Part shown: positions 27,002 through 28,838 of the stretch, in pieces
Layout: each line of letters begins with the position of its first letter
Numbering within the stretch: the first letter of the stretch is position 1
Sequence record: OZ470804.1
Length of the DNA: 64,000 nt
Direction: 5' to 3' (one strand)
From: a phage
The notes under the pieces: model-generated
Told to the model about the DNA's origin: nothing
Seen by the model: the letters and a program-made list of their open reading frames with translations, nothing else
Database searches by the model: none
Position numbers and translations under genes: made by a program

Positions 27002-27045
27002 AATGACCTCAAAGTTATATTAAATTTTGTATTACATTGAGTATA

Positions 27046-27074
27046 AAAATAAGCTATAACACCTGACTTGTCAA
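27046..27074 (-). promoter_or_regulatory. sigma70-like promoter (TTGACA-N17-TATTTT) flanked by 9-bp inverted repeat
   Basis: On - strand TTGACA (27074-27069), 17-nt spacer, TATTTT (27051-27046); AAGCTATAA / TTATAGCTT inverted repeat at 27051-27059 and 27081-27089. Confidence 0.4.
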
Positions 27075-27091
27075 CAGATTTTATAGCTTAT

Positions 27092-27131
27092 TTGGCAGAT
27101 TTTTTATAAGGCTACTGCCATCCTTCCATAC
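27092..27131. repeat. 40-bp exact direct repeat, copy 1
   Basis: Identical to 28469-28508; contains TGGCAG-N16-CTGCCA inverted repeat. Confidence 0.9.
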
Positions 27132-27326
27132 CGAACCGTGCCTAACCTGACCATGCCACACCTTACAATACCAAACATTACTTAAAAACCCTCTTAGAAG
27201 ACTCTTAAGTGATGTAATCGAATTTTAATGTAGCTCCGATTAACTACCCATACCTGACCAGACCTTGCCAAACCTTACCTCACCCAACTACACCGAACCT
27301 CATTAAAAGACCCTCTTAAAAGACCT

Positions 27327-27352
27327 TTTAAAAAGGAGCCTCCGAAGAGGCT
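27327..27352 (-). terminator. rho-independent terminator (- strand)
   Basis: AGCCTC / GAGGCT stem with 4-nt loop; on - strand followed by CCTTTTT; immediately downstream of gene ending at 27364. Confidence 0.6.
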
Positions 27353-27363
27353 ACCTAGTCAAC

Positions 27364-27804
27364 TTAGAAAGGTTTTCTACGTTGCTTGTTAATGTTAGCT
27401 TTCATAGCAGCTAAATGGTTTTGCTGTTCAATCAGTCGTGAACGTTCTTGATGACTAAGCGCCATAGTGTTCACATTCTCAATTGCTTGAGTGGCTTGCT
27501 TTAAAGCTCGACCAATCTTACCAGACATTTTGCGTTTTGCAATAGTTGCTTGATGCTTAGGTTCAACCACACGATAACCAACACCCATTGAAGCAACCAG
27601 ATAAATCTTCTCTTCTTTAAGAAGCTTTTCAATAAACTTCTCAAGTCGGTTTAGACGTGTAAGTGCATAAGCCTTCATTTCATCTTCGTACTTAACAATG
27701 TCGCCTTGATAAGTTGGCTTCACAATACCTAAGAAGGTATCCATCTCAGAGTGTGATACAGTGTCACCGTAACTAAACTTTGCTGCTAATGCTTTTGTAT
27801 TCAT
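27364..27804 (-). CDS. hypothetical protein (repeat-flanked cassette gene 2)
   Basis: 146-aa ORF, basic C-terminus; no motif recognised. Confidence 0.5.
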   Translation of the reverse strand: MNTKALAAKFSYGDTVSHSEMDTFLGIVKPTYQGDIVKYEDEMKAYALTRLNRLEKFIEKLLKEEKIYLVASMGVGYRVVEPKHQATIAKRKMSGKIGRALKQATQAIENVNTMALSHQERSRLIEQQNHLAAMKANINKQRRKPF

Positions 27805-27806
27805 AA

Positions 27807-28409
27807 TTAAACGTTACCTTCTGAAATAACTTCTACAGAAAAACGACCAAAGCGTGGACGCCAATCACCTACACCACAAAGGTTACCAGCATTTTCCAGA
27901 ACCATCAAGAGTTCTTCTTTGGTGATTTGCTCTTCATCGAACATCAAACCAAACTCTACAGACCAATCACGGAAGATTGGACGGTAGCTCATAACTCGTG
28001 CTGTACCAATCTTAACAGATTTAGCATAGATAAAATCTGGATTCTTAGCAAGTTCTTGTGGGTTTGCTGGACAGTTCTTGATAGTCATTGGGAAGACTAC
28101 ATCTGTCAGCATAATAGCTCGGTCAATTACCTTACCAAGTTTGTTGAGTTTTGCACCAGACTTGATACAAGCCTCAATCATCTCACCGTTCATAACAAAA
28201 CCTAGCTGCTCATCGTAGTAACAAGAAGTCACCAGTTGACTTTCTGCTAAGAGCGCATAATCTTCGTCAGTCTTTTTACGTTTACTGGACAGAGACTTGT
28301 GATATTTTGTCAGAGGGTTTAATGGGTCTGACAACGTATCGTTATGGCTCAAGAAAGGACGAGTACCAGTGATTTTGATATTTAGCAGTTTCATAGCATT
28401 TAGCTCCAC
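27807..28409 (-). CDS. hypothetical protein (repeat-flanked cassette gene 1)
   Basis: 200-aa ORF, 2 nt upstream of next gene; no motif recognised. Confidence 0.5.
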
Positions 28410-28468
28410 ACTTTAGTTGATTGTTAATTTGTTTGTAAAGAACCCTCAACAGAAGACTCTTTAGAAAC

Positions 28469-28508
28469 TTGGCAGATTTTTTATAAGGCTACTGCCATCC
28501 TTCCATAC
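28469..28508. repeat. 40-bp exact direct repeat, copy 2
   Basis: Identical to 27092-27131. Confidence 0.9.
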
Positions 28509-28660
28509 ATTACCAAACAGTACTGTGCCACAACACACCATACCCAACCCCACCTAACTCTACCACACCTCATTAAAAGACCTTGTTTAAAGACCTTTTA
28601 AAAAGGTAAGTCTCATTTTAATGTAGCTGAGACTAACTACCCTTACCAGACCTAGCCTTG

Positions 28661-28720
28661 CCTTACCATACCGTACTTTACCTTACCGTACCGTACTTTA
28701 CCCTACCGTACCGGACAATA
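28661..28720. repeat. 20-bp tandem direct repeat x3 (iteron-like)
   Basis: CCTTACCATACCGTACTTTA / CCTTACCGTACCGTACTTTA / CCCTACCGTACCGGACAATA; strongly G-poor on + strand. Confidence 0.8.
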
Positions 28721-28838
28721 CTTAACCCGACCTCGCCCTACCGGACATCACTTAAAAACCCTTTTAAAAGACTCTTAAGTGATGCTGGTGAGTACCCGTT
28801 GGTTTATGCTGCTCAGTATACTCACCAAATTTTCTATG

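Follow-up and report, generated by a model that had tools for sequence, protein, structure and literature searches.

A Felix O1-like phage very probably carries a type II VIPR locus of the SUSP1 clade with four guide RNA genes

Introduction

An important question raised by the 64,000 nucleotides of phage DNA in sequence record OZ470804.1 is why two small genes in this stretch, here called the window, lie between unusually long, repeat-rich non-coding regions (positions 27002-28838). The initial annotation described a two-gene cassette with modular, shuffled intergenic elements and considered a moron-type insertion, a replication origin or a structured non-coding locus. Our analysis indicates that the locus is, with high confidence, a type II VIPR (Viral Interference Programmable Repeat) system of the SUSP1 clade, i.e. 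a set of four guide RNA genes arranged around a RAMP gene and its accessory gene. The window, which represents 64 kb of a genome of about 88 kb and to which all checks of the phage's own guides and self-targets are confined, belongs to a Felix O1-like myovirus, a relative of Felixounavirus and Suspvirus. A 2-kb query around the locus matched 231 phage records at 80-99% identity, nearly all of them Felixounavirus or relatives, and the window aligns colinearly with Escherichia phage SUSP1 (about 84% nucleotide identity).

VIPR has only recently been described as a class of RNA-guided DNA recognition, with CRISPR RAMP effectors proposed to descend from it, and both this kind of system and the SUSP1 clade itself are already known from two preprints of 2026. 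It was discovered and characterized in SUSP1, its experimental model (bioRxiv 10.64898/2026.04.26.720920), and cryo-EM structures are given in a companion preprint (bioRxiv 10.64898/2026.04.26.720927). Its parts are the RAMP protein Vipr, a vap accessory gene and guide RNAs (vrRNAs) of alternating GGY and NN motifs with a 3' tail; in SUSP1 the discrete vrRNAs of about 100 nucleotides co-purify with Vipr and repress transcription of their targets (10.64898/2026.04.26.720920). According to both preprints (10.64898/2026.04.26.720920, 10.64898/2026.04.26.720927), a SUSP1 vrRNA consists of a YNNGG tract followed by a pseudoknot tail, and the small Cas7-like Vipr polymerizes on the tract with one protomer per pentamer, burying every GGY and exposing the two variable bases; the resulting filament reads double-stranded DNA as xNN xNN, with one base skipped per unit, and blocks transcription. 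The present locus adds a natural example, so far without annotation, from the clade to which this experimental model belongs.

Architecture of the locus

Read on the minus strand from 28842 to 27042, the locus comprises a promoter, two guide RNA genes, vipr, vap, a terminator, two further guide RNA genes and a second terminator. All of the elements listed in the initial annotation are present, i.e. the two minus-strand open reading frames (ORFs), the terminator, the modules and the C/A-rich tracts, and so is the exact 40-bp repeat at 27092-27131 and 28469-28508. Their arrangement is nevertheless not a shuffled one: both flanks together represent four copies of a single ordered unit, in which a leader is followed by a repeat tract and by a tail of about 33 nucleotides, and only the variants of leader and tail depend on the position in the array. 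The pentamer period, the RAMP protein and the guide function had not been part of that annotation.

On the minus strand, which is also the gene strand, the tracts have a strict 5-nucleotide period and can be written as (YNNGG)n. We term the four guides D, C, B and A in their order along this strand: D has 21 units (28641-28745), C has 14, several of them degenerate (28503-28572), B has 11 (27248-27302) and A has 10 (27126-27175). A scan for CC every five nucleotides across the 64-kb window located just four tracts, all of them in the two flanks, and no GG-phased tract was found on its plus strand. The statistics of the repeat were derived from 63 unique tracts out of 78 in 19 loci with Vipr proteins that are 97-100% identical. 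Position 1 is a pyrimidine in 99%, positions 4 and 5 are G in 86% and 98%, respectively, and the entropy at positions 2 and 3 is 1.9 bits each; 51 of the 63 tracts end with the unit TATGG. The exact sequence of guide D was otherwise found only in phage vB_EcoM-LTH02. Guides A, B and C lie inside the 9-16 units per vrRNA that are given as a descriptive range in the preprint (10.64898/2026.04.26.720920), and guide D lies outside; because 20 consecutive units of this 21-unit guide match one 60-bp target (see below), 9-16 units do not seem to be a limit.

Each tract is followed by a tail that can fold into a pseudoknot. The tail of vrRNA D (28606-28640, minus strand) is of the internal type and reads GTAG-TTAGTCTCAG-CTAC-ATTAAAA-TGAGACT, whereas that of vrRNA C (28470-28502, minus strand) is of the terminal type and reads AAGG-ATGGCAGTAG-CCTT-ATAAAAAAT-CTGCCA. 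In the tail of vrRNA B (27216-27247, minus strand) the loop AATCGGA pairs with TTCGATT downstream, and the tail of vrRNA A (27093-27125, minus strand) is identical to that of C. Those of A and C lie inside the two copies of the 40-bp repeat, which thus consists of the last one or two repeat units plus the tail of both array-terminal units, and the inverted repeat TGGCAG-N16-CTGCCA within it is stem 2 of the pseudoknot. The tails align without gaps as four sequence variants that all retain one H-type pseudoknot. Stem 1 (GTAG/CTAC, AAGG/CCTT or GTGG/CCAC) is 100% paired and covaries in three of four pairs; stem 2, in which loop bases pair with a segment beyond an A-rich linker, is 84% paired and covaries in six of eight. 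Overall, 89% of the cells pair and nine of 12 pairs have changed on both sides, as against 26-44% pairing in slid registers, and none of 500 shuffles matched the score. The suggestion of a structured non-coding locus was well founded: the flanks hold the genes of structured guide RNAs, four in all, with a pseudoknot tail that is supported by covariation.

The gene vipr (27807-28394, minus strand) encodes 195 amino acids of a Cas7/Csm3-like RAMP, counted from the start codon ATG at 28394, in line with the SUSP1 annotation; reading the ORF as 200 amino acids from a GTG start is less good. The AlphaFold model (pLDDT 93) has the Cas7/Csm3-type RAMP fold, i.e. a single RRM with a glycine-rich loop and a thumb, and the C-terminal G-loop motif is kept across a family of 520 members. 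Compared with SUSP1 Vipr, the protein is 97.9% identical (four substitutions in 195 residues), and the clade is defined by more than 90% Vipr protein identity (10.64898/2026.04.26.720920). Nine residues named as RNA or DNA contacts that grip GGY or the skipped base (10.64898/2026.04.26.720927), i.e. H17, K33, E71, M72, R138, C173, D177, W178 and R179, are all identical in the two proteins. Position 175 is V both in the window and in the SUSP1 RefSeq record, whereas the text of that preprint gives T175. A link of the Vipr family to the preprint seed protein X1U2U4 through a marine-sediment homologue was discarded, the homologue being X0TDZ5 instead.

Directly downstream, and forming a two-gene operon with vipr, lies the vap1-type accessory gene vap (27364-27804, minus strand; 146 amino acids), whose product differs from SUSP1 Vap at a single residue (99.3% identity). 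Type II Vap proteins are called DNA-binding, and vap1 enhances defence (10.64898/2026.04.26.720920). A single-sequence AlphaFold model of Vap reached a pLDDT of 68.5 and gave weak winged-helix-like matches in Foldseek (best E 0.16); BLASTP of Vap against the syntenic second gene of one distant locus detected no similarity. The vipr-vap coding DNA (27364-28394) is about 93% identical to that of SUSP1 and the proteins are 98-99% identical, as compared with an average of about 84% for the genomes, and because these values are far above the genome average, the cassette is either under unusually strong constraint or has recently been exchanged between lineages.

Predicted guide targets in an Escherichia coli satellite

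The published satellite was located independently through the window homologue (13490-14287) of SUSP1 gene YP_009199407, which matches a gene annotated as 'phage baseplate protein' in 474 of 5426 complete E. coli genomes, in more than 220 of them at more than 90% nucleotide identity. This gene belongs to a satellite, an element of about 11 kb with serine recombinases, an HNH gene, a tape-measure gene and the baseplate gene (e.g. NZ_CP077477.1 of strain 15A, 869-880 kb), which occurs in some 9% of the complete genomes of E. coli (about 474-485 of 5426) at three or more insertion sites (yciI/tonB, a DUF72 gene near yecN, and lafU/dinB). Satellite and window phage share the tape-measure gene and a baseplate segment of more than 90% identity that extends over more than 70% of the length of the baseplate gene.

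Seven satellite loci (L029-L035, 121 kb in total) were scanned with the NN dinucleotides of each guide, spaced by zero to three wildcard bases; scores are matched NN bases over the total, and the null is the maximum over 200 shuffles of unit order. With one base skipped, guide D scored 38/40 (best of skips 0, 2 and 3: 25/40; shuffle maximum 29/40), guide A 18/18 (14/18; 16/18), guide B 17/18 (14/18; 16/18) and guide C 22/24, the latter in L032 (17/24; 20/24). Thus, outlier matches for all four guides appeared only under the one-base skip, and skips of 0, 2 and 3 remained at the level of the null. The near-constant first unit (TGAGG or TAAGG) and the last unit (TATGG) do not match the targets. 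Guide D matches the first gene of the satellite operon (185 amino acids, e.g. WP_000999799.1) in five of seven variants with its first 20 units (predicted site in L035: 6236-6298); guide B matches a small gene that precedes the tape-measure gene (17/18 at L029:11303-11329); and guide A matches across the junction and start of the second and third satellite genes (18/18 at L035:6909-6941). In the targets of D and B it is the codon wobble position that is skipped (for B as derived by hand from coordinates). No recognizable function was found for the satellite target genes.

Two further comparisons frame these scores. Within the 64-kb window no self-target with at least 80% of NN bases matched was detected, the best own matches being 25/40, 19/24, 14/18 and 13/18, and as a positive control 43 of the 56 guides of 18 sister phages reached at least 80% in the same seven satellite loci, many of them 90-100%. 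The decoding represents an independent replication of the one-nucleotide-skip rule and of the main biological conclusion, on guides that were used to derive neither, and it points to a three-way conflict between the phage, the satellite of about 11 kb and sibling phages.

The assignment to the type II VIPR of the SUSP1 clade thus draws on a RAMP protein with more than 90% identity to SUSP1 Vipr and with its contact residues, on vap, and on YNNGG vrRNAs with a pseudoknot tail, which match targets under the one-base skip and have no self-match of the above kind. By analogy with SUSP1, we infer that the RNAs of the window phage are made and processed as in that phage, i.e. that transcription of the minus strand would yield vrRNAs, each composed of a YNNGG tract and a pseudoknot tail. 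Vipr is predicted to polymerize on the repeats and would coat each tract with one protomer per pentamer, with the GGY buried and the NN presented. The Vipr-vrRNA filament would then bind double-stranded DNA via the xNN code and block transcription at the target, with Vap enhancing silencing, and in this way the vrRNAs probably repress the satellite during infection.

Several points weigh against this reading. Any function assigned to the window phage is transferred from SUSP1, and the two sources for it are preprints. The targets given above are the best among seven satellite loci, and guides A and B are short and exceed the null by only one or two bases. The 21 units of guide D are more than the preprint range allows for, and guide C has five units without GG and could be a decaying guide. 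The leaders described below may be promoters or processing signals.

Guides possibly directed at other VIPR loci

Guide C is peculiar in what it matches. Its best satellite match is not a protein gene, but the last repeats and the tail of a vrRNA that is carried by satellite L032. Comparison with 18 related phage loci (L002-L019), SUSP1 included, showed that guide C also matches, with 20-23 of 24 bases and in 18 of 18, the tail GTGGATGGTAGTAGCCACGTTAAA that belongs to the guide directly preceding vipr (positions 2881-2916 of these loci). In the window phage this vipr-proximal tail is the other variant, AAGGATGGCAGTAGCCTTATAAAA, and the best match of guide C in its own window is 19/24. Guide C itself, as the vipr-proximal guide of the window phage, bears the tail variant that in the relatives is confined to the far end of the array, and it is because of this exchange that an exact 40-bp repeat exists at all. 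The tail swap would apparently avoid self-targeting by guide C, which is shared by about a dozen other phages and which, judging from its matches, may silence rival VIPR loci.

Guides also occur in phages without vipr. A vipr gene of at least 90% identity was found in about 118 phage records, as compared with about 230 Felix O1-like records that match the region, and Salmonella phages are mostly without it (17 versus 75). Felix O1 and vB_CECAV_041 have the same neighbours, i.e. the ORF87 homologue and DNA ligase, and neither vipr nor vap. Where Felix O1 lacks the two genes, there is a 282-bp spacer (NC_005282.1, 57632-57913; 3633-3914 in our excerpt L037) with a promoter, a leader, one vrRNA and a tail; vB_CECAV_041 retains two vrRNAs, one of which is guide C, and one satellite likewise carries a guide without vipr. 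The orphan guide of Felix O1 matches 18/18 within vipr of phage AYO145A and 17/18 NN bases in vipr of the window phage, at the codons for TKEELLMVL (27898-27924, minus strand) and with the skipped base on the wobble position; these matches to vipr are far beyond chance. Because such phages have no vipr, their guides could work only with the Vipr of a rival, and the matches suggest that orphan guides may act by borrowing the Vipr of a co-infecting rival in order to shut down the rival's own system. That Felix O1-like phages direct VIPR guides at the VIPR loci of one another, the tail swap distinguishing self from non-self, is a tentative proposal to which we give a little less than even weight.

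VIPR-on-VIPR targeting has been reported for the Pseudomonas clade, and the same preprint reports satellites that bear their own vrRNAs as well as vrRNAs that target other VIPR systems (10.64898/2026.04.26.720920). Orphan anti-vipr guides in vipr-less lytic phages and the tail swap are not mentioned in the portion of its text available to us. The 21-unit guide, the tail swap and the orphan anti-vipr guide of Felix O1 are possibly new.

As a side observation, GU169904.1 (Staphylococcus phage SA1, 147 kb) contains a 99.5% identical vipr with Felix O1-like flanks and looks like a chimeric or contaminated assembly.

Alternative explanations

Could the repeats be something else than guides? The long non-coding, AT-rich and repeat-dense regions adjoin genes for DNA ligase and DNA polymerase, as would suit the replication origin considered in the initial annotation or a partition site, with the pentamers serving as iterons for an initiator and the AT-rich modules as unwinding elements. 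Since iterons would be conserved and the NN bases of the repeats are not (63 of 78 tracts are unique, and the variable bases differ almost wholly between phages with near-identical flanking genes and Vipr proteins that are 97-100% identical), an origin is disfavoured. The strand of the tracts is also strictly fixed with respect to vipr, distant relatives included, the published rule for the RNA guides is the only one under which the tracts decode to foreign sequences, and Felix O1 replicates with just one such tract; we therefore consider an origin extremely unlikely. The same low standing must be given to generic RNA signals, be it Rho-loading (rut) sites on the plus strand that act against antisense transcription, or two-tetrad G-quadruplexes on the minus strand that act as insulators or terminators. 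Indeed, there is hardly any G on the plus strand of the tracts, a GG-N3-GG spacing could in principle form G2 quadruplexes, and tracts at distant loci end in GGTTTTTT. Such signals, however, leave unexplained the pyrimidine at position 1, the fixed last unit TATGG, the covarying pseudoknot tail, the linkage to RAMP genes across phyla and the matches to satellite genes, and the plus strand yielded neither a promoter nor a significant structure.

A decayed or inert accessory cassette, in which the repeats would be relics without current guide function, accounts for other observations: the cassette is dispensable in the genus, as seen in Felix O1 and vB_CECAV_041, which have no vipr and vap, units of guide C are degenerate, and searches of Pfam, PHROG and Rfam return no functional annotation. 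Yet Vipr and Vap share 98-99% of their residues with the functional proteins of SUSP1 in genomes of about 84% nucleotide identity, the named contact residues are all identical to those of SUSP1, and three guides match extant satellite sequences at 94-100%, so that inertness appears very unlikely. The moron-type insertion of the initial annotation survives to the extent that the comparison with related genomes revealed an accessory cassette, present in some phages and absent from others, whose neighbours (the ORF87 homologue and DNA ligase) are conserved; beyond this it does not describe the locus. A number of further ideas, i.e. a TRAP-like ring, a CsrA sponge, Rho rut sites, G-quadruplexes, telomere-like repeats, primase or Chi sites and iterons, were dropped because the protein is a RAMP and the NN bases decode to targets.

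Leaders, promoter and terminators

Transcription of the type II VIPR locus is likely to be headed by the strong sigma-70-like promoter TTGACA-16-TATACT (28842 to 28815, minus strand), which has 11 of 12 consensus matches and is conserved in sequence upstream of the first guide in related loci. The modules described in the initial annotation correspond to the leaders of the four vrRNAs, all on the minus strand. The leader of vrRNA D (28746-28790; formerly module 28751-28784) is an AU-rich hairpin of 19 bp extending up to the first repeat unit (-17.8 kcal/mol, z -6.0, none of 200 shuffles as stable); those of C (28573-28605; 28570-28606) and B (27303-27336; 27301-27336) follow the other module, and the leader of vrRNA A (27176-27215; 27181-27214) is a hairpin again. 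More generally, each array opens with a leader that forms a perfect AU-rich hairpin of 19 bp and abuts the first repeat, and internal leaders have no stable fold. A leader motif, GTCTT-N5-RGGGTYTTTWA, occurs five times as against 0.37 expected, four times directly before a tract. Together with the confinement of the four tracts to the flanks, this bears out the view that these regions are not ordinary spacer. Taking the leader module for a general phage promoter was rejected, its occurrence being limited to the positions before the four guides.

After vap, an intrinsic terminator (27352 to 27327, minus strand) consists of a 6-bp GC-rich stem, a TTCG loop and a T-run (-15.4 kcal/mol, z -2.6), and a 13-bp hairpin with a U-run closes the array (27042-27092, minus strand; -17.8 kcal/mol, z -4.3), where it overlaps a TTGACA-17-TATTTT promoter of the next gene (26618-27001). 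A further hairpin, at 28786-28827, had been taken as a hint at a plus-strand transcript across the right flank. The inverted repeat exists and overlaps the -10 hexamer of the minus-strand locus promoter; as a plus-strand terminator it was rejected, since its fold is unexceptional (z -0.92, with 33 of 200 shuffles folding as well) and a proper U-tract is absent. The plus-strand transcript itself found no backing, as neither a promoter nor significant structure was detected on that strand.

Comparison with known systems

In its closest relative, the VIPR locus of SUSP1, the site between the ORF87 homologue and DNA ligase, the YNNGG guides, the pseudoknot tails and the satellite family that forms the main target are all the same as in the window. 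The array layout differs, with two guides upstream and two downstream in the window as against one and three in SUSP1, and so do all four guide sequences, one of which has 21 units in the window. In addition, the vipr-proximal tail of the window is the array-end variant, and its guide C is directed at the variant that is used by SUSP1 and the other relatives.

Class 1 CRISPR-Cas effectors (Cas7, Csm3, Cmr4) share with VIPR the RAMP fold with G-loop and thumb, one protomer per RNA repeat length with periodic base flipping, and the combination of a variable guide with a conserved structured handle. In contrast to their period of 6 nucleotides, that of VIPR is 5, with three of five guide bases buried and a gapped xNN code on double-stranded DNA, and the guides of VIPR are hard-wired genes rather than acquired spacers. 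A repeat search gave no CRISPR array at the locus, and cas genes, cas1 and cas2 among them, are absent from its vicinity; Pfam returned no Cas family for four proteins, i.e. those of the locus and of its immediate neighbours.

Two other systems invite comparison. The trp RNA-binding attenuation protein (TRAP) binds as an oligomer to (G/U)AG-N2-3 repeats with a period of about 5 nucleotides and non-conserved spacers. TRAP is a beta-sandwich ring, however, and not a RAMP, whereas the spacers in the window carry information and the output would be DNA targeting rather than attenuation. Orphan guides or RNA anti-CRISPRs on phages or satellites are solitary repeat units that exploit the Cas proteins of another element. 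Felix O1, vB_CECAV_041 and one satellite seem comparable in that they have guides without vipr that match vipr or a guide tail, with the difference that the loading of orphan vrRNAs by a rival's Vipr is putative.

In the database records examined, both genes are entered as 'hypothetical protein' and the guide RNAs are not annotated. Searches of genes and flanks with the Pfam, PHROG and Rfam libraries gave no functional annotation, and Rfam covariance models had zero matches up to E = 5 in 26800-29000. Reading raw sequence can nevertheless flag loci of the VIPR type, and pentamer-periodic GG tracts on the coding strand beside a RAMP gene of about 190 amino acids offer a simple diagnostic.

Neighbouring genes and distant loci

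Genes for thymidylate synthase, DHFR, DNA ligase and DNA polymerase lie near the locus. Upstream, an ORF of 62 amino acids (28839-29027; phrog_5428, of unknown function) runs up to the start of the locus promoter, the -35 hexamer of which (TTGACA, 28837-28842) overlaps the 3' end of the ORF (28839-28842).

Beyond the Felix O1-like phages, tracts on the same strand flank Vipr homologues of only 37-40% identity on unrelated viral contigs in five of six distant loci. These tracts are GC-rich (GGCNN) and often occupy the whole stretch between a stop codon and the ribosome-binding site that follows. The sixth locus, L020 on the 146-kb contig IMGVR_UViG_3300037067_002413, encodes a Vipr homologue of 40% identity, and no GG tract with a period of 5 was detected within 3 kb on either side; this homologue may use an alternative repeat consensus or have its guides elsewhere. 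Alternative repeat consensi are mentioned in the preprint, as are hammerhead-interspersed and staggered arrays (10.64898/2026.04.26.720920).

In three distant VIPR loci on metagenomic viral contigs (L022, 2936-4505; L025, 2880-4330; L021, 2912-4220), the tracts fill the entire intergenic space, beginning at the stop codon and ending with GGTTTTT(T) right before the next ribosome-binding site. In L022, a T-arm-like GGGTGCGAATCCC lies between tracts within a TTGACTG/CAGTCAA stem. A similar element is found on the chromosome of Rhodococcus globerulus (JBBCXC010000002.1; L026, 7117-7664), where the gene pair is followed by five (GGCNN)n tracts in a row, each succeeded by a conserved element of about 55 nucleotides. 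The core of this element, GGCGG-TTCGATT-CCGCC, corresponds perfectly to a tRNA T-arm and is enclosed by an acceptor-like stem, GTCCGG/CCGGAC. Such tRNA-like tails, of which the available text of the preprint (10.64898/2026.04.26.720920) makes no mention, are possibly cut by RNase P or RNase Z, and ARAGORN called two pseudo-tRNAs at these elements.

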